In this document: in pieces, positions 25-61,147 of the stretch
Layout of the letters: every line of letters begins with the position of its first letter
Position numbering within the stretch: position 1 is the first letter of the stretch
Assembly (NCBI GenBank): GCA_041661605.1
Contig: JBAZUE010000001.1
Coordinates: forward strand, 606,928 to 670,927
Length of the DNA: 64,000 bases
Source of the DNA: Candidatus Omnitrophota bacterium
GTDB taxonomy: Bacteria; Omnitrophota; Gorgyraeia; Gygaellales; Profunditerraquicolaceae
Direction of reading: 5' to 3'
Made by a program: the position numbers and the translations under genes
The notes under the pieces: generated by a model
What the model was told of the DNA's origin: nothing
The model's database searches: none
What the model saw: the letters and a program-made list of their open reading frames with translations, nothing else

Positions 25-927
25 TTAACGCATGACAAGCAGGCTCTTTATCGCCTCGGGTTTATTGACTTTACGGTAAGTTTTTTGGATTATATTGCCG
101 CCGATGGGCAGATTAGTATAAATAACAGCCATGGAAACGCCTTTTTTATAGGTTTCGGTTTCTGCAAATACACTGAATTTTTCTGTCAACGGGGAATTCC
201 CGCAAATGACCACGGATTTACCCGCCACCTTTTTAATACAATCCACAAATTGCTCCTCATCTTCGATACTAGAAGTAAATAAGACTACCTTGGGCGGCCC
301 TATGTGTTTTTTGCCCGCATTCTGCATAGCTTTTAATATTGCCACTTTCACTGCCTCGCATGACGAATGAAAAGCAGAAAGGTCCGCTGAGCCAACACCG
401 AAAAATATGTTTGTTGAAGTCACGGTCATGGCAACCACACCTTTTGCCACCCCTTTTACCGTCTTTTCATATGATAGATAGCCTTTCTTGAAATTACCCT
501 TATTATTAATTGGCTTGCCGCTTGTTTTGCAGGTTACCGGCTTTATTGGATCAGCAACACCCCCGTATATCTTCGTTTTATTGCCTAGGAATCTCCTTGC
601 TTCTTTAAGAACGGTTTGTGAATCATTTTCTAAGCTGGAAAAAATAATCGCAAAATGCGGGGTCTTACATTTCTTCCCTGCCAAGGCCATGTTTAGAGCT
701 TCATTGGTCGCCTCTTTTGAATCACTCTTGGTACTCCATCCCAAGCCAACCTCTGTTCCACATATCTTATCCATGATGCTATCTCGAATGCTTGTGACCG
801 ATTGACACTGGAGCCACCCTTGCACTTTGCTCACCTTAAAGAAAAAAAACACCCCCACAATAACGATTAAGGCAATTATTGCTGCGATAGAAATGACTAT
901 AAAGAGTTTTTTAAGCATCGGAGCCAT
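25..927 (-). CDS. Membrane-anchored FIST_N-like domain protein (putative sensory/ligand-binding protein)
   Basis: 300-aa ORF. It has an N-terminal K-rich segment followed by one TM helix (LFIVISIAAIIALIVIVGVFFFF). The remainder follows the FIST_N pattern as I recall it (STKSDSKEATNEALNMAL..PHFAIIFSS...IYGGVA; PPKVVLFTSSIEDEE...VVICGNSP). It lies directly downstream of the c-di-GMP riboswitch. The domain call is from memory, not a search. Confidence 0.4.
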   Translation of the reverse strand: MAPMLKKLFIVISIAAIIALIVIVGVFFFFKVSKVQGWLQCQSVTSIRDSIMDKICGTEVGLGWSTKSDSKEATNEALNMALAGKKCKTPHFAIIFSSLENDSQTVLKEARRFLGNKTKIYGGVADPIKPVTCKTSGKPINNKGNFKKGYLSYEKTVKGVAKGVVAMTVTSTNIFFGVGSADLSAFHSSCEAVKVAILKAMQNAGKKHIGPPKVVLFTSSIEDEEQFVDCIKKVAGKSVVICGNSPLTEKFSVFAETETYKKGVSMAVIYTNLPIGGNIIQKTYRKVNKPEAIKSLLVMR

Positions 928-1047: not shown

Positions 1048-1141
1048 CTCCCCTTTTGGTAACGCAGCCTCCCGTTCAACTGAACGGGACTGTCGCTTTG
1101 CGTCCCAAGATTACTCTTGGTTTGCCTTTATCAGCAGGAAG
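1048..1141 (-). promoter_or_regulatory. c-di-GMP-I (GEMM-I) riboswitch aptamer
   Basis: Minus strand reads ...AAAGGCAAACC-AAGA[GUAA]UCUU-GGGACGCAAAGC-GACAGU-CCCGUUC[AGUU]GAACGGG-AGGCUGCGUUACC-AAAAGGGGAG. The GGCAAACC, GGGACGCAAAGC and GCG..UUACC blocks and the GNRA-capped P2 match the conserved GEMM-I core (compare Vc2: GGCAAACC..GAAA..GGGACGCAAAGCC...GCGGGGUUACC). The outer boundaries are approximate. Confidence 0.8.
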
Positions 1142-2481: not shown

Positions 2482-3870
2482 CTATTTAGAAATTCTTAAA
2501 GTAACGGTAACCTTGGTTCCTTTCCCAACCTGGCTGCTTATCTCTATCAGCCCTTTATGTAAATTGATGATATTTTGGCTTACCGATAACCCGAGGCCGG
2601 TACCTTTTCCCGGGCCTTTTGTAGTAAAGAAAGGGTCAAAGATCCTTTTCAGGTTTTCTTCGGAAATCCCTGTGCCCGTATCCTCAATTTCCACGATAAT
2701 AACCTCTTCCATTTTCTTAAGGAAACAGCGGACGGTAAGTTCTCCGTTTCCGACAATTGCGTGAGCCGCATTCATAAACAGGTTGATAAATACCTGCATC
2801 AGCTTATTCTTATCTACCGAAACCTTCGGCAGGCCTTCTTGAATTTGCCTGATTACCTTAACATGTTTTAATTCTGTTTTTACCAGGTTCAAACAATTCT
2901 CCAGTATGGAATTGATGTTTTCTGGGTACAATTCCAGCTTCGTGGCCCTAGAGAAATCCAGAAGGGAAACAACGATCCCGTCTGCTCTTTGCGCGCTGTC
3001 CATGATCATGGACAAGGTCTCCAACTGCTCTTTTTCGGCCGAAGGTATTAGCTGCTCCAAATAAGAAACCCCCTGTATTATAATCCCCAGAGGGTTCCTC
3101 ATATCGTGGGCCACGCCGCTTGCCAGTTGGCCGATAGCCTTGAGCTTCTCCATCTGGGTCAGCTTATCCTGCATTTCCTTCAATTCATCGTAAGCTATTC
3201 TCAATTCTTCCGCTCTCTTTAAAGCCTGCTCATACAGCCGGACGTTCTGCAGGGTAATCGCGCCTACGCGGGCGATGCTCATAACTACCGAGGCCTCCCT
3301 CTGCGTGAAAGGCCCGGGAGCCTTCTTGTCGCAAACATGCAACACACCTAAGACTTCATTTTTATATATGACCGGCACGCTGATAAACGCCTTTTGCAAG
3401 TACTCCTCTTTGTTCAGTTTATTTAGATACGACTCCTCGGACAAATCAGCAACTACCAATGCTTCCCGGTTATGTATCACAAGACCAGATATGCTGTCAT
3501 TGCCTATTACTAAAGGGCTCTGGCTGCGATCGCGGCACCAGCCCATCGCGCAAGCCAGGGTGAACTGCTCTGAATTCTTGTCCCAGGTAAGAAAGACGGT
3601 ACGCTCAATGGAGAGGAAATTATGCGCGGCCTCAGTAATACAGCGCACCGCATCCTGCAGGCCGAAGGCTGAAATCAACTTTTCATTGAATTTAAACAGG
3701 AAATCCAGTTCTGTTTCATACCAGATCTTATCTTCTAAATACGACGGATTCTGCGGCGAGAGCGAGCCTTGCTGCGGCGGCTCTTGAGAGAAAAAAGGCT
3801 TCTTCTGCCGGAAAGAGATAGCTATCATATAACCAAACAACACAGCGATCAAAAGAAATAGAATAACCAT
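2482..3870 (-). CDS. Sensor histidine kinase with N-terminal TM and a GAF-like domain
   Basis: H-box SGVAHDMRNPL. HATPase_c N/G boxes (NLFMNAAHA, DTGTGI, GKGTGLGLS). A central GAF-like segment and one N-terminal TM helix. Confidence 0.85.
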   Translation of the reverse strand: MVILFLLIAVLFGYMIAISFRQKKPFFSQEPPQQGSLSPQNPSYLEDKIWYETELDFLFKFNEKLISAFGLQDAVRCITEAAHNFLSIERTVFLTWDKNSEQFTLACAMGWCRDRSQSPLVIGNDSISGLVIHNREALVVADLSEESYLNKLNKEEYLQKAFISVPVIYKNEVLGVLHVCDKKAPGPFTQREASVVMSIARVGAITLQNVRLYEQALKRAEELRIAYDELKEMQDKLTQMEKLKAIGQLASGVAHDMRNPLGIIIQGVSYLEQLIPSAEKEQLETLSMIMDSAQRADGIVVSLLDFSRATKLELYPENINSILENCLNLVKTELKHVKVIRQIQEGLPKVSVDKNKLMQVFINLFMNAAHAIVGNGELTVRCFLKKMEEVIIVEIEDTGTGISEENLKRIFDPFFTTKGPGKGTGLGLSVSQNIINLHKGLIEISSQVGKGTKVTVTLRISK

Positions 3871-6467: not shown

Positions 6468-6672
6468 TCTTACTCCGCCTATTTCCCTTTATATTATTAA
6501 CCTTATTTTATGCCTCTGAATAAGCTTGTCAATCAAAAATTACAAACAGAAAAGGCGCTGATTCCTCAACGCCTTTTCTTGTAGCACAAATGTTTTTCTT
6601 TACTTAAACCAATTCAATTTACACGTTACCTCAAACCTATATAAAAGATTTTTTGTATCGGTAAGTATAATT

Positions 6673-6713
6673 AAAAAAAGAGTCAGCTGTTTAATTAGCT
6701 GGCTCTTTTTTTA
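6673..6713 (-). terminator. Bidirectional intrinsic terminator at the end of the rRNA operon
   Basis: AGAGCCAGC-(loop)-GCTGACTCT flanked by A7 and T7 runs, immediately 3' of the 5S gene. A second hairpin (AAAGGCG..CGCCTTT) lies at 6551-6576. Confidence 0.7.
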
Positions 6714-6719
6714 ATTAAA

Positions 6720-6833
6720 GGAGCACCGACCTACTCTCGCATAGCCTTACGACTAAACTACCATCGGCCCTGAGGGGCTTAACGGCCGTATTCGGAATGG
6801 GAACGGGTGTTTCCCCCTCGGCAAAAGCACTCC
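6720..6833 (-). rRNA. rrf: 5S ribosomal RNA
   Basis: Minus strand reads GGAGTGCTTTTGCCGAGGGGGAAACACCCGTTCCCATTCCGAATACGGCCGTTAAG...GAGAGTAGGTCGGTGCTCC. The conserved 5S loop motifs and terminal helix I pairing are present. Confidence 0.9.
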
Positions 6834-6923
6834 AAGTCTATAACAAAAATGTCAACAACTACATACAGATTTATATATATGAGCAAAAACTACTTATCCA
6901 AATAACCCAAGTGGAAAAAAATT

Positions 6924-9888
<2,965 letters not shown>

Positions 9889-10498: not shown

Positions 10499-12088
<1,590 letters not shown>

Positions 12089-12202
12089 AAACTTATGGAA
12101 AATTATGAATGAAGGCTCTAGTGATTTATTTAATTTCAAACCTCATGAAATTGACCGTAATAATCCCTTCCGGAATTATCTTGGCCTCGCTTGGCAATTC
12201 AA

Positions 12203-12248
12203 TTATCAAAAGAGCAACAAAAAACGCCCCAACAAATGCTGGGACGTT
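12203..12248 (-). promoter_or_regulatory. rRNA leader antitermination region: boxB-like hairpin plus boxA-like element
   Basis: Minus strand reads AACGTCCC-agcatttgtt-GGGGCGTT TTTTGT TGCTCTTTTGATAA. The last 14 nt (12203-12216) resemble the boxA consensus TGCTCTTTAACAA. Confidence 0.45.
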
Positions 12249-12275
12249 AAATTTATAATTACGCCCTATTTGTCG

Positions 12276-12303
12276 ATAATGATTAATTACTAGAAATTGT
12301 CAA
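12276..12303 (-). promoter_or_regulatory. Candidate rRNA promoter P2
   Basis: Minus strand reads TTGACA-16 nt-CATTAT. Confidence 0.35.
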
Positions 12304-12355
12304 CAGCTTTATAATTATTTTCACAATAATTTGACCCTTTTGGAAGGGAATGCTT

Positions 12356-12383
12356 ATTCTATTACAAAACAGCATTTTGTCAA
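12356..12383 (-). promoter_or_regulatory. Candidate rRNA promoter P1
   Basis: Minus strand reads TTGACA-16 nt-TAGAAT, with an A/T-rich UP-like region upstream. Confidence 0.5.
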
Positions 12384-12438
12384 GAACTTTTTTCTAAAAT
12401 ATTTATATTATATCTAAAGTATAAAGCCTGGTTAAAAC

Positions 12439-13509
12439 TTATAAATTATCAACCACTTGCAAAAAAGCATCGACTATCTTTGGATCAAACTGTGTGCCGC
12501 TATTACACTTTATCTCCAGAATAGCCTCCTCCTTCAACAAGGGAACCTTCCTGTATGAACGCGCTGAACGCATAGCCTCATAAGAATCAGCTACGTGGAT
12601 TATGCGTGCGCCCAAAAGTATGTCCTCTCCTTTCCTGCCTTCCGGATAACCCGAGCCGTCATAATGTTCATGATGCTGCCTGACCAACTCTACTACGCCT
12701 CCTAAGAATGTAAGAGGCTCCAGAATCTGCGCGCCAATAGTAGGATGCTTTTTAATCTCTTCCCACTCCGAAGGAGTAAGCGCGGAAGACTTAAGCAAAA
12801 TGCTGTCCCCAATGCCTATTTTACCCAAATCATGGAGCTCACAAGCCTGACGGATCATTTCCACTTCTTTAGCCGGAAGTTTAAGGTGATTGGCAATAAC
12901 CACTGCGTACCTTGCTACAGTTTCCGAATGGCTATGCGTATAGTGGTCCCTTGCTTCGATTGCCTGCGCCAAAACCTTGATAGTGCGCATATATGTCGAA
13001 CGCAAATCCTCATAGAGCCTGCTTAAATTATTCGTAGAATCTTCTATCCTTTTTGCCAAAAGGGTGTTCTGTTTTTCTAAAGCCTTATTATTCTCCTTAA
13101 GCCCCTGCGCTATCTTGCGGCTTGCAGCTAATAACGTATGCAGTTTAATTCCTTTTTCCACGGCAAATTTCAATTTCTCTGCTTTGACCGGCCAACCTAA
13201 AGTCTCAAAAACCCCTATTTCAGCAAACTGATTGGCCTGCTCTTCTACCTCCACTTCAATTAAAACAATTATTACGCAATCAGGATCGATTTTTTTAAGA
13301 TCACTTATCGTAGAAAGAATATCCAGATCCGGGATGGCATATCTTATGATAACTAAATCACAAATATTATGTTCTAAGCTCACTACGCCAGCCTGAGAAG
13401 TAGTTTCCGTAATTAAGGCATAGTCTCCTATATTGGACAACTGTTCCTTGATCTCAATGGAATAAGACTTATCGTCGCAAATAAACAGTATCTTGCCTTG
13501 CACAACCAT
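12439..13509 (-). CDS. HD-GYP domain c-di-GMP phosphodiesterase with a degenerate (pseudo-)receiver domain
   Basis: The C-terminal half has HD (ELHDLGK) and HHEHYDGSGYP motifs (RpfG-type HD-GYP). The N-terminal 120 aa has the receiver fold pattern (ILFICDD...DLVIIRYAIPDLD...), but R56 replaces the phosphoacceptor Asp and W106-P107 replaces the conserved K-P. Confidence 0.85.
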   Translation of the reverse strand: MVVQGKILFICDDKSYSIEIKEQLSNIGDYALITETTSQAGVVSLEHNICDLVIIRYAIPDLDILSTISDLKKIDPDCVIIVLIEVEVEEQANQFAEIGVFETLGWPVKAEKLKFAVEKGIKLHTLLAASRKIAQGLKENNKALEKQNTLLAKRIEDSTNNLSRLYEDLRSTYMRTIKVLAQAIEARDHYTHSHSETVARYAVVIANHLKLPAKEVEMIRQACELHDLGKIGIGDSILLKSSALTPSEWEEIKKHPTIGAQILEPLTFLGGVVELVRQHHEHYDGSGYPEGRKGEDILLGARIIHVADSYEAMRSARSYRKVPLLKEEAILEIKCNSGTQFDPKIVDAFLQVVDNL

Positions 13510-13634
13510 GATTACTCCTCTAAAACTACCCTTCCTGTCTTATCAAAACCAACTAATTTGTTTTAATTTTATCGATAAACCCTTTATTTATAAGTATATC
13601 TCTTGCGCCATCATCAATCAAGGCTGTTTTGGCC

Positions 13635-14084
13635 CTATTCCTTATTCTTATAATATTTTTCAATCGCTCTCTTAATATCAGAAGAGGTAGAAACAAAGGC
13701 CTGCACACTGCAGCCGCTAAGAAGTTCCACGTCATCAATAGCCTGCATATTTAAGGGATTAGACATGGCCAACGTAAGATTGCTGCCGATTTTATCAATT
13801 GGCACGAGTAGATATTGCCGGGCCAGCCTGCTGGGGATAATACTGGTTATCTCCGGGCTTACATCATAATTACTTAAAGACAAATAGGGAAAACCATATT
13901 GCGCGGTAAGTGACTGGGCAATATCATCCTCTTTAACATACTCCAACTCAAGCAGAATCTCGCCGATCAGGCCGCCCTTATCCCGTTGCACACGCAAAGC
14001 CTGCTCCAGTTGATCCCGGCTGATAATCCCCTGATCAAGCAAAAGCTCACCCAATTGTTTATTATTAATCCTGCTGGCTGTCAT
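13635..14084 (-). CDS. Stand-alone T2SSE_N / MshEN-like domain protein (candidate c-di-GMP receptor)
   Basis: 149 aa. Residues 10-62 read QLGELLLDQGIISRDQLEQALRVQ-RDKGG-LIGEILLELEYVKEDDIAQSLTAQ. That is two 24-residue [R]LGxx(LVI)(LVI)xxG(LVI)(LVI)xxxx(LVI)xxx(LVI)xxQ-type motifs separated by 5 residues, as in MshEN. The rest resembles GspE/PilB N-terminal domains. Confidence 0.65.
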   Translation of the reverse strand: MTASRINNKQLGELLLDQGIISRDQLEQALRVQRDKGGLIGEILLELEYVKEDDIAQSLTAQYGFPYLSLSNYDVSPEITSIIPSRLARQYLLVPIDKIGSNLTLAMSNPLNMQAIDDVELLSGCSVQAFVSTSSDIKRAIEKYYKNKE

Positions 14085-14110
14085 AGATTTATTATTATTT
14101 TAGTATCCTG

Positions 14111-14139
14111 ATTATACCCCCTATCCGATTACATGACAA
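14111..14139 (-). promoter_or_regulatory. Candidate promoter of the MshEN-like/HD-GYP unit
   Basis: Minus strand reads TTGTCA-17 nt-TATAAT, 27 nt upstream of the ATG at 14084. Confidence 0.5.
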
Positions 14140-49103: not shown

Positions 49104-50126
49104 TTATCTTAAAACCTTCCGGATGCTGGCCAAGACTTTTTTAATAATTTGGTTAATATCTCCAAGCGGGGTGCAGCCTGCGGCGTTTTTGTGCCCGCCT
49201 CCCCCAAAAAGCGCGGCTATCTTATTTACATCAACTTTGCCATGGCTCCTTAAATTAATACGCACCCGGCTGTCATCTTTTAAGCTTTCTCTGAACAGGA
49301 CCACAACTTCCACCCCTTTAATCGCCCGGGCAAAGCTCAAAAGCTGGTCTCCTAAATCCATGGAGATAACACTGTTTTTTAACAAACCCCTCTTAAGTTT
49401 AAAATACGCTATTTTACCCTGCGCAGAAAAATTTATCCTTGGCAGCAATTTAATTAATAACTTCGTTTCAGCCAAAGCAAAGTTTTCATAAACATACCGG
49501 TAAATAAGCGGGACATTGATATCAAATTTCAAAAGTTCAGCAACCGCCAGATGGGTAAAACTGGAGGTATTGGAATACCTGAACGAACCTGTATCTGTCA
49601 TCATGCCGGTATACATACAGATAGCTTCAGGCTTATTAATAGGCAGAAGCATTTGTTTGTAAATACGATAAATCATCTCTGAACAAGATGAAGCATGCGG
49701 GTCAACCCAATGCAGATCCCCAAAACCCTGGTTACTGATATGATGGTCAATATTTAGAACGGGCTTGCTGTCTTTATTCAACCGCCAAACATCTCCGGTA
49801 CGTTTCAAGTCAGCGCAATCCAAAACCACCATACAATCAAACTTTATGCAAAGCGATCTATCGTCTAACTTGCGTATTTTATTTACTCCCGGCATAAATT
49901 CGTGGCCGTAAGGAATACCGTCTTCATTCACAATTATACCCTGCTTGCCTAATTTTCTAATCAAGGCGTAAAAAGCAAGTTCTGCGCCTAAAGCGTCCCC
50001 CTCTAAACTGGTGTGCGCTGTGATTAAGAAATTATTATATTTTTTTATGCCTGCGCAGATTTCTTTTAGCCCCACTGCTCTGCCCGTCCTTTCCCGTGTT
50101 TGGCCCAGCCGTGTCTTTAGGAACAT
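49104..50126 (-). CDS. nrnA: DHH/DHHA1 family phosphoesterase (NrnA-like oligoribonuclease/pAp phosphatase)
   Basis: DHH motifs (HTSLEGDALG, DCAD, DHH) and the DHHA1 GGGH motif. The true start is possibly the GTG at 50075 (VGLKEICAGIKKYNNFLI), because the ATG at 50126 overlaps rbfA by 92 nt. Confidence 0.8.
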   Translation of the reverse strand: MFLKTRLGQTRERTGRAVGLKEICAGIKKYNNFLITAHTSLEGDALGAELAFYALIRKLGKQGIIVNEDGIPYGHEFMPGVNKIRKLDDRSLCIKFDCMVVLDCADLKRTGDVWRLNKDSKPVLNIDHHISNQGFGDLHWVDPHASSCSEMIYRIYKQMLLPINKPEAICMYTGMMTDTGSFRYSNTSSFTHLAVAELLKFDINVPLIYRYVYENFALAETKLLIKLLPRINFSAQGKIAYFKLKRGLLKNSVISMDLGDQLLSFARAIKGVEVVVLFRESLKDDSRVRINLRSHGKVDVNKIAALFGGGGHKNAAGCTPLGDINQIIKKVLASIRKVLR

Positions 50127-59938: not shown

Positions 59939-61147
59939 TTAGATGTCTAAATGATGCCCCAACTTCTCTTTTTTTGTTTTAAGGTATTTATAATTCTCTG
60001 CGTTAGGTTCTATCTCTAAAGGCACCCGCTCAGAAACCTTCAGGCCATAACCTTCCAGGCCGACAATCTTACGCGGGTTATTAGTCAGCAACTTTATCTG
60101 CTTAATCCCTAAATCTACAAGGATCTGGGCGCCGATACCATAATCGCGCAGGTCAGCCTTATGCCCTAGCGCTTCATTTGCCTCAACAGTATCCATCCCT
60201 TTATCCTGAAGGTTATAAGCACGCATTTTCTCCACCAGGCCGATTCCCCTGCCCTCCTGGTTCATGTAAAGAATTACCCCTTTTTTCTCAAGGGAGATAA
60301 TCTGCATAGCCCTCTCTAATTGCCTGCCGCAATCGCAGCGCAATGAACCAAAAACATCCCCGGTCAAACACTCCGAATGCACACGCACCAATATCGCTTC
60401 GTCTGACCAACTGCCGATACAAAGCGCTATATGCGTTTGGCCGTTAGTCTTATCCCGATAGATAATTAACCTGAACTCGCCAAATTTTGTAGGCAGCTTA
60501 GTCTCTACTATAGTTTCAACCAACTTTTCTTTTCTGCGGCGGTATTCGATAAGGCTGGCAATAGTGCAAATCTTTAAATTATGTTTCTTGGCAAACTCCA
60601 TGAGCTGCGGCAGGCGGGCCATAGAACCGTCATCATTCATAATCTCGCAAATCACTCCTGCCGGATAAAGCCCGGACAGGCGCATCAAATCCAGGCTTGC
60701 TTCGGTATGACCTGCCCTGACTAAAACACCGCCGCGGCGGCTTCGTAAAGGAAAAATATGCCCTGGCCGCGCCAGGTCTTCCGGCCTGCTTTGGCCGTTA
60801 ATTAAAACTTCAATTGTCCTGGCCCGGTCATAAGCAGAAATGCCTGTAGTTACCCCTTTGGCGGCATCAACAGAAATCATCCAGGCAGTCTTAAAAGGAT
60901 CCTCTGCGTTGGCCTGCAGGGTATTTTTTAGCATGGGGTCAAGCTCGAGCAAACGCAGCCTCTCCTCCTCCATGGGCACGCAGATAAGCCCGCGGCCAAA
61001 CTTGGCCATAAAATTTATATCTCCGGGCTTAACAAACGAAGATGCCATTATCAGGTCACCTTCATTCTCGCGGTCTTCATCATCAACCACGATAACCATC
61101 CTGCCTGCTTTCAAATCTTCAATAATTTCAGATATACTGTTGAACAT
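59939..61147 (-). CDS. ribBA: Bifunctional 3,4-dihydroxy-2-butanone-4-phosphate synthase / GTP cyclohydrolase II
   Basis: DHBP synthase ([16 protein letters not shown]) followed by GCH-II ([14 protein letters not shown], QEGRGIGL). Confidence 0.93.

Follow-up and report, generated by a model that had tools for sequence, protein, structure and literature searches.

A free-standing MshEN protein and an HD-GYP protein retained after deletions in a conserved gene cluster of Omnitrophota

Omnitrophota are uncultivated bacteria, often of very small size, and their cell biology is poorly characterised. The DNA discussed here is a stretch of 64,000 nucleotides from a Candidatus Omnitrophota bacterium (NCBI GenBank assembly GCA_041661605.1, contig JBAZUE010000001.1, positions 606,928 to 670,927 of the forward strand); this whole stretch is called the window, and positions are counted from its first letter. 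Two neighbouring genes on its minus strand encode a protein of 149 amino acids with an MshEN domain, a type of domain known for binding cyclic di-GMP (c-di-GMP), and an HD-GYP protein of 356 amino acids. An original prediction, made from the sequence alone, had described them as a two-gene module. This view was not borne out by the comparison with related genomes, in which the conserved unit is a cluster of six genes—for a GGDEF cyclase, the MshEN-only protein, two PilB ATPases, the HD-GYP protein and PilC—and the adjacency of the MshEN and HD-GYP genes is the product of deletion.

The MshEN-only and HD-GYP proteins

The smaller protein consists of an MshEN domain only, as had been predicted. 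The Pfam profile of this domain (T2SSE_N, PF05157) matched residues 63–147 with 75.4 bits against a cut-off of 23.1, and the T2SSE ATPase domain (PF00437) gave no Pfam match to the protein, which ends at residue 149. The predicted arrangement of two tandem 24-residue motifs was recovered as well: the NCBIfam model NF053729 (“c-di-GMP_motif”) scored 60.2 bits (cut-off 38), with residues 10–62 aligned to positions 1–53 of its 53 positions, and the motifs lie at residues 10–33 and 39–62 on either side of the five-residue spacer RDKGG (34–38). Motif I (QLGELLLDQGIISRDQLEQALRVQ) matches 10 of the 11 defined positions, with Q10 replacing the leading Arg, and our recount agrees with the earlier one. 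For motif II (LIGEILLELEYVKEDDIAQSLTAQ), the predicted seven matches out of 11 hold under the extended consensus, which admits R, K or L (PMC11731258), but the strict consensus gives six and the relaxed search pattern of Wang gives nine.

Orthologues of the MshEN-only protein were collected from 60 Omnitrophota loci, one genome per species, to which the labels L001, L002 and so on refer below. They comprise 145–152 residues and share 58–93% identity, and the nearest proteins (148–149 amino acids, 79–99% identity) come from metagenome-assembled genomes of Candidatus Omnitrophota. The LG dipeptide of both motifs is near-invariant among the orthologues. The terminal glutamines are likewise kept (Q33 in 58 of 60, Q62 in all); we take them to correspond to Q32 and Q61 of MshE, which hydrogen-bond the ribose-phosphate of the ligand. 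The leading Arg of each MshEN motif stacks on guanine. At this position, motif II has Leu in all 60 orthologues (L39 in the window protein), which fits the extended consensus, while motif I is headed by Gln in most of them, and by K, R, L or Y in the deep-branching ones. As to the turn glycines (G18 and G47 of MshE), G19 is present in the window protein, and position 48 is Gly in 49 of the 60 orthologues, Lys in eight, and Glu in the window and in L001. Substitutions at near-invariant glycines of the small protein were seen in the genomes lacking the ATPase genes, i.e., G48E in the window and L001, G19K in L001, and G37D and G38M in L009.

Conservation is higher in the C-terminal N1-type subdomain (mean top-residue frequency, 0.85) than in the half with the ligand-binding motifs (0.79). 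An AlphaFold model of the protein (predicted local distance difference test score, 86.9) shows helices at residues 9–17, 23–36, 40–46 and 52–63, followed by three strands with helices. In a Foldseek search with this model, the best fold matches included the GSPII-A domain of PilF (9G1W; template modelling (TM) score 0.88), Vibrio cholerae MshEN with c-di-GMP (5HTL; 0.66–0.70), and the PilF domain GSPII-B with c-di-GMP. Structures of GspE and of Xanthomonas citri PilB were also matched. N1 subdomains are docking sites in both of these proteins, where they are bound by GspL in GspE and by PilZ in X. citri PilB.

The larger protein was identified in Pfam by HD_5 (119.2 bits, cut-off 27.2) and HD (74 bits). 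Its catalytic motifs LHDLGK and HHEHYDGSGYP are intact, and the HD, HHExxDGxGYP and downstream Asp residues align with those of PmGH (4MCW). The original prediction of an HD-GYP enzyme with this motif, located 125 nucleotides after the small gene, is thus confirmed in motif, domain and gap; a receiver-like domain at the N-terminus of the protein had not been mentioned. The Response_reg profile (PF00072) matches this domain with 27.6 bits, just under the cut-off of 30.2. Upon alignment to CheY, the equivalent of the phospho-acceptor D57 is Arg in the window protein and Lys or Arg in 34 of 42 orthologues, and the equivalent of D12, which together with D13 makes up the acidic pocket of CheY, is Cys in the window and in 32 of the 42. 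The domain is, hence, a conserved pseudo-receiver without a phospho-acceptor. Because it cannot be phosphorylated, it is probably a protein-interaction (docking) module or an allosteric, regulatory one, and the loss of the phospho-acceptor together with one acidic pocket residue makes control by a histidine kinase unlikely. The protein belongs to a c-di-GMP signalling family, with c-di-GMP as its presumed substrate.

A six-gene cluster reduced by deletion

Neighbouring genes at the 60 loci were identified by tblastn, blastp and Pfam. The common order starts with the genes for MreB, MreC, MreD, PBP2, RodA and a radical SAM protein, continues with those for a HAMP-GAF-GGDEF cyclase (~475 amino acids), the MshEN-only protein, PilB1 (MshEN-T2SSE, ~570), PilB2 (~570), the receiver-HD-GYP protein (356) and PilC (T2SSF, ~402), and ends with the ribosomal RNA (rRNA) operon. 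Upstream of the small gene, which was readable in 60 loci, a full GGDEF gene is present in 49 cases, a truncated HAMP-GAF gene in three and the radical SAM gene in seven. Downstream, 58 loci (the window among them) were informative, and the next gene encodes PilB1 in 55 of them and the HD-GYP protein in three, namely the window, L001 and L009. The constant neighbour of the small protein is, therefore, PilB1 and not the HD-GYP protein, whose gene lies ~3.5 kb beyond the small gene in the full cluster. The stop codon of the MshEN gene overlaps the pilB1 start in seven loci and is at most 30 nucleotides away in 22 of 55, which indicates coupled expression of these two genes. Among the 37 full loci with PilC visible, 32 have the HD-GYP gene between pilB2 and pilC; it is missing from the other five, which keep the small protein.

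Two loci of the set deserve separate mention. A single open reading frame (ORF) for 1170 amino acids spans PilB1 and PilB2 in L011 (6586–10098), either as a natural fusion or as an assembly frameshift. In L053 (10166–10627), a second free-standing MshEN protein of 153 amino acids, with 38% identity to the window protein and 58 bits against NF053729, takes the place of HD-GYP.

Upstream of the small gene, the window contains the genes for MreB, MreC, MreD, PBP2, RodA and the radical SAM protein (TIGR03960). The spacer between the small gene and the HD-GYP gene preserves a trace of what has been lost. In local alignments with the last 200 nucleotides of pilB2 from L002, L003 and L005, it reached z = 9.1–11.6 over 300 shuffles, including a block with 27 of 33 nucleotides identical, versus z = 1.5 for the 3' end of pilB1; blastx of the spacer led to residues ~511–534 of the 570 of PilB2. 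Its 3' end, GAGGAGTAATCATG, is the pilB2 tail, which in full loci contains the Shine-Dalgarno sequence used by the HD-GYP gene. Since the spacer still carries this relic of the pilB2 3' end, the two genes have become adjacent by deletion. The opposite course, in which insertions into an original gene pair gave rise to the full cluster, was considered and rejected, since the spacer holds the relic and the reduced loci are nested among full ones. The gap between the genes amounts to only 9 nucleotides in L001 and 30 in L009, which is consistent with continued erosion or with a second deletion.

In a neighbour-joining tree of the concatenated RodA, radical SAM and MshEN proteins (no support values), the window subclade comprises L001–L006, L009 and L014 and is nested among full-cluster loci. 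PilC is absent throughout this subclade, where the rRNA leader sequence that follows PilC in full loci directly follows the HD-GYP gene. The cyclase is cut down to HAMP-GAF in L002–L004 and absent from L005, L006 and L014; both ATPase genes are also absent from the window, L001 and L009. In the stretch from the HD-GYP gene to the 16S rRNA gene, blastx gave only matches with E > 3 and, hence, no PilC relic. Across the 64-kb window, tblastn for PilB/T2SSE, PilC and GGDEF homologues matched only the MshEN gene itself. As had been predicted, no GGDEF gene was found in the window, neither by tblastn with the GGDEF protein of the cluster nor by a six-frame motif scan.

The PilB proteins of the sister loci L002–L006 and L014 have changed at catalytic residues. 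PilB1 has Q, N, D or E instead of the His of the His-box and, in some loci, P or G instead of the Arg of the GEIRD motif; in PilB2, the Glu of GEIRD has become Gln in all six. The ORFs are full-length (e.g., 6543–8252 and 8381–10090 in L002), except for a PilB2 of only 385 amino acids in L004. Judged by these residues, the proteins look like hydrolysis-deficient or decaying ATPases, and the motor seems to have been decaying already before its deletion. An apparent loss of Walker A in these PilBs, obtained with a strict regular expression, was rejected upon alignment, in which most of them keep GPAGSGKT, a valid P-loop.

The promoter predicted for the small gene was located at the expected spacing and agrees with the consensus at 11 of 12 positions (Table 1). 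Its −10 element TATAAT is found at the same place in L001, L009, L005, L006 and L014, and the −35 element in L001, L009 and L005. These five loci are the ones without an upstream GGDEF gene; where that gene is present, the MshEN gene begins 10–20 nucleotides past the GGDEF stop codon, without a promoter-like site. Co-transcription of the MshEN and HD-GYP genes is plausible: a terminator scan gave no terminator-like site on the minus strand between them, and the HD-GYP gene is preceded by a strong Shine-Dalgarno sequence. The spacer also contains a weak promoter-like site (9 of 12 positions, 13621..13593).

Table 1. Coordinates of the described features within the window
Feature	Position	Strand	Description
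Promoter-like TTGTCA-17-TATAAT	14139..14111	−	11/12 consensus positions; 5' of the MshEN-only gene
MshEN-only gene	13635..14084	−	ORF, 149 amino acids; bundle residues 9–63, T2SSE_N1-type subdomain 64–149
Spacer	13510..13634	−	125 nucleotides; decayed pilB2 3' end including the Shine-Dalgarno sequence GAGGAG for HD-GYP
HD-GYP gene	12439..13509	−	356 amino acids; pseudo-receiver ~5–120, helical linker, HD-GYP ~178–345
rRNA-operon leader	12089..12438	−	directly after the HD-GYP stop; place of PilC in the full cluster
Riboswitch	1054..1135	−	c-di-GMP-I-GGC (RF03167), 61.8 bits, gathering score 59; best clan member

Ligand binding and related systems

Based on its sequence, binding of c-di-GMP by the MshEN-only protein is plausible. 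Within the cluster, the free-standing proteins score highest against the c-di-GMP motif model (60–67 bits, versus 43–51 for PilB1 and 32–50 for PilB2), and motif glycines are lost in both PilB1 and PilB2, which have RLT and KLS where RLG is expected. A Leu at the head of a motif is compatible with tight binding in Thermus thermophilus PilF: GSPII-B, whose motif II is headed by Leu, binds c-di-GMP at 6 nM, and its K167L variant, with Leu heading motif I, binds even tighter (2 nM), which has led to the extension of the consensus to (R/K/L)LG (PMC11731258).

The MshEN domain of V. cholerae (5HTL) and the N-termini of PilB and GspE belong to the same Pfam family as the window protein and share its motifs, the five-residue spacer and the predicted fold of helical bundle plus N1 subdomain. 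The association with a type IV pilus ATPase cluster is also common to V. cholerae MshEN and the ancestral Omnitrophota arrangement. In contrast to V. cholerae MshEN, however, the window protein is an unfused chain of 149 amino acids, its motifs are headed by Q and L instead of R and R, and Glu occupies the second turn glycine. Another parallel is offered by T. thermophilus PilF, a (MshEN)3-T2SSE ATPase with the domains GSPII-A, -B and -C, where several MshEN domains serve one pilus motor, as proposed for the ancestral cluster. The window protein is closest to GSPII-A in sequence and fold and shares the Leu-headed motif II with the high-affinity domain GSPII-B. Yet, the extra domains of PilF are covalently fused, while the extra domain of Omnitrophota is a separate gene product that persists without neighbouring ATPases.

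Free-standing MshEN proteins are not confined to this cluster. Among the best 150 representatives at 50% clustering, approximately 36 have a single domain and at most 180 amino acids, and the statement of the original prediction that MshEN domains are normally fused to secretion or pilus ATPases was, thus, overstated: about a quarter of these representatives are single-domain, and both a free-standing example and a fusion of another kind have been known. The former is Pseudomonas aeruginosa PA3740 (MshEN-xT2SSE_N1), which likewise lacks an ATPase and is listed among the experimentally checked proteins in the supplement of Wang 2016; its N1 subdomain is highly diverged, whereas that of the Omnitrophota protein is canonical and very conserved, and lineage and gene neighbourhood differ. 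The catalogued architectures also include (MshEN)2-4-T2SSE, MshEN-REC and MshEN-HD-GYP-REC-DUF4388 (PMC5013675 supplement). The last two, represented by Geobacter lovleyi Glov_2262 and Myxococcus xanthus MXAN_2809, respectively, are fusions among the domains found here, i.e., MshEN, HD-GYP and receiver, and since these are linked within single polypeptides, a functional connection between them is supported. In both cases, however, the domains form one fused chain in a different order, while the window encodes two proteins and its receiver lacks the phospho-acceptor. For the HD-GYP protein on its own, the RpfG-type REC-HD-GYP proteins and PmGH (4MCW) provide the closest comparison, with the same order of receiver and HD-GYP domain and with the HD, HHExxDGxGYP and Asp residues kept. 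It differs from the RpfG type in that the phospho-acceptor Asp (replaced by R; K/R in most orthologues) and one acidic pocket residue of the receiver are missing. Neither this cluster, nor c-di-GMP signalling in Omnitrophota, nor an MshEN protein encoded in trans beside PilB genes was described in the papers that our literature search returned.

Role of the pair and other features of the window

Nei-Gojobori ratios of nonsynonymous to synonymous substitution (dN/dS) among the window, L001 and L009, at a synonymous divergence (dS) of 0.6–1.7, were 0.06–0.07 for the MshEN gene, 0.03–0.05 for the HD-GYP gene and 0.04–0.05 for RodA. Both surviving genes are under strong purifying selection. As to the expectation that the pair is conserved in relatives, the genes as such are conserved, but direct adjacency is restricted to the window, L001 and L009. 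One might still regard both genes as decaying leftovers without a remaining function, considering that neighbouring cluster genes were lost, that the PilBs of the sister loci changed at catalytic residues, and that the reduced lineage carries substitutions at near-invariant glycines. However, both reading frames are intact, dN/dS among the three reduced genomes (0.03–0.07, at dS of 0.6–1.7) equals that of RodA, and the −10 element is conserved in the loci without the cyclase, which together make a dead remnant very unlikely. Purifying selection after the loss of the motor genes implies that both genes still work in the window lineage, and since the other four cluster genes are deleted and the pair is intact, it probably serves a purpose that goes beyond the local motor.

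We think it rather probable that the pair is the surviving signalling half of an Omnitrophota cluster that coupled c-di-GMP to a type IV pilus-like motor. In the ancestral arrangement, the small protein would bind c-di-GMP in its four-helix bundle and dock, through the more conserved N1-type subdomain, onto a partner, for which the PilB1/PilB2 motor or the membrane platform of this motor is the likeliest candidate. It would, in this way, act as an extra MshEN domain in trans, comparable to the supernumerary MshEN domains that PilF-type ATPases carry at their N-terminus, while the HD-GYP protein might hydrolyse c-di-GMP locally and keep its local level low. In the window lineage, three separate deletions eliminated the genes for the cyclase, for both PilB ATPases and for PilC, with the MshEN gene acquiring or retaining its own promoter and the HD-GYP gene keeping the ribosome-binding site from the pilB2 tail. 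After loss of the motor, the two proteins may act upon one another, or upon targets whose genes lie elsewhere.

Several points weigh against this proposal. The tree in which the reduced loci are nested carries no support values, and pilB may have been lost once or twice. The substrate of the HD-GYP protein is not fixed by its sequence because, in the PDB, the HD-GYP domain is matched best by the cGAMP (cyclic GMP-AMP)-specific V-cGAP3 (5Z7C), with PmGH next. Regarding the ligand, the small protein is closest, among solved structures, to PilF GSPII-A in both sequence (71 bits) and fold (TM 0.88). GSPII-A is a non-binder, and its lack of binding is ascribed to an N-cap formed by L4-T5-I6-G7-D8-K9, which locks an extended helix 1, together with contacts between the subdomains (PMC12002112). 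Moreover, motif I of the window protein is headed by Q10, which is outside R/K/L, and E48, common only to the window and L001, stands where most orthologues have the turn glycine. The same features would suit a small protein that serves as a nucleotide-independent N1-domain adaptor or decoy. We nevertheless regard such a role as unlikely: both terminal glutamines, G41 and the Leu heading motif II, all absent from GSPII-A, are present, the NF053729 score is far above the cut-off, and the T5/D8 pair of the GSPII-A N-cap is replaced by R5 and N8, with helix 1 predicted to begin at residue 9 instead of 6. The bearing of this N-cap difference on binding, as judged from the model, is suggestive only.

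The fate of the pair after the deletions can also be read differently. It might form a sensor/adaptor circuit of its own: the free MshEN protein, whether loaded with c-di-GMP or not, would bind to the HD-GYP protein and regulate it, e.g., via the pseudo-receiver, and thereby close a feedback loop on c-di-GMP levels. That exactly these two of the six cluster genes were kept through three deletions and under strong purifying selection would suit such a circuit, as would the gap without a terminator and a non-phosphorylatable receiver in need of another input; a direct link between the two proteins is further favoured by the catalogued MshEN-HD-GYP-REC-DUF4388 and MshEN-REC fusions. This link is, however, weakened by the five of 37 full loci that keep the small protein without HD-GYP and by L053 with its second free MshEN protein at that place, and the ancestral coupling of the small gene is to pilB1 rather than to the HD-GYP gene. 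We, thus, consider the circuit somewhat unlikely. Alternatively, the two genes could be independent survivors with an accidental adjacency, their partners being located elsewhere, such as another PilB/GspE-type machine for the MshEN protein and the global c-di-GMP pool for the HD-GYP protein. The demonstrable origin of the adjacency by deletion, the weak promoter-like site in the spacer and the dispensability of HD-GYP in some full loci point in this direction, but the sparing of precisely these two genes by three deletions is left unexplained, which renders this alternative possible though doubtful. A bolder proposal goes further than the surviving signalling half favoured above, namely that a phylum-wide trans-acting c-di-GMP sensor, once shared by a two-ATPase motor, makes up an autonomous receptor-phosphodiesterase complex with the pseudo-receiver HD-GYP protein, which outlived the motor and was re-used for a different output in reduced Omnitrophota genomes; we deem this improbable.

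The MshEN and HD-GYP families are well known, and the value of the locus lies in the conserved cluster and the natural deletion series rather than in the two domains. As it combines a cyclase and a phosphodiesterase with a free receptor domain, two PilB motors and PilC, the cluster is a compact candidate for the control of pilus assembly by c-di-GMP. The window lineage constitutes a natural deletion experiment, in which motor, platform and cyclase were lost and the genes of the receptor and the phosphodiesterase were selected as strongly as that of RodA. If the two proteins interact, they would represent a simple receptor-enzyme pair in trans, which would explain the MshEN/REC/HD-GYP fusions of other phyla.

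The original prediction had further taken a GEMM-I riboswitch at about 1.1 kb as showing that the organism uses c-di-GMP. The element is real, but it is the GGC variant and not the canonical type; it constitutes weaker evidence for c-di-GMP use since our literature search found no report of a ligand for this variant. The cyclase gene of the locus is gone as well. The riboswitch is followed by a terminator-like hairpin and an ORF (25–927, minus strand) for a protein of 300 amino acids, which has a membrane anchor at its N-terminus and no match in Pfam. The rRNA-operon leader, upstream of the 16S rRNA gene (10503..12088, minus strand), contains two strong promoter-like sites, TTGACA-16-TAGAAT (12383–12356) and TTGACA-16-CATTAT (12303–12276), and a hairpin with a T-run at 12248..12223. 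The remainder of the window is of housekeeping nature, with the mre and mur/dcw clusters, isoleucyl-tRNA synthetase, a ligase and the rRNA operon. Further observations on the minus strand are a GAF-HisKA-HATPase_c histidine kinase (2482–3870) and a DHH/DHHA1 (NrnA-like) protein (49104–50126), which might degrade linear dinucleotides from the hydrolysis of cyclic dinucleotides. A flavin mononucleotide riboswitch (RF00050; 61270–61389, minus strand; 70.1 bits, gathering score 66.2) precedes an ORF on the same strand (59939–61147).

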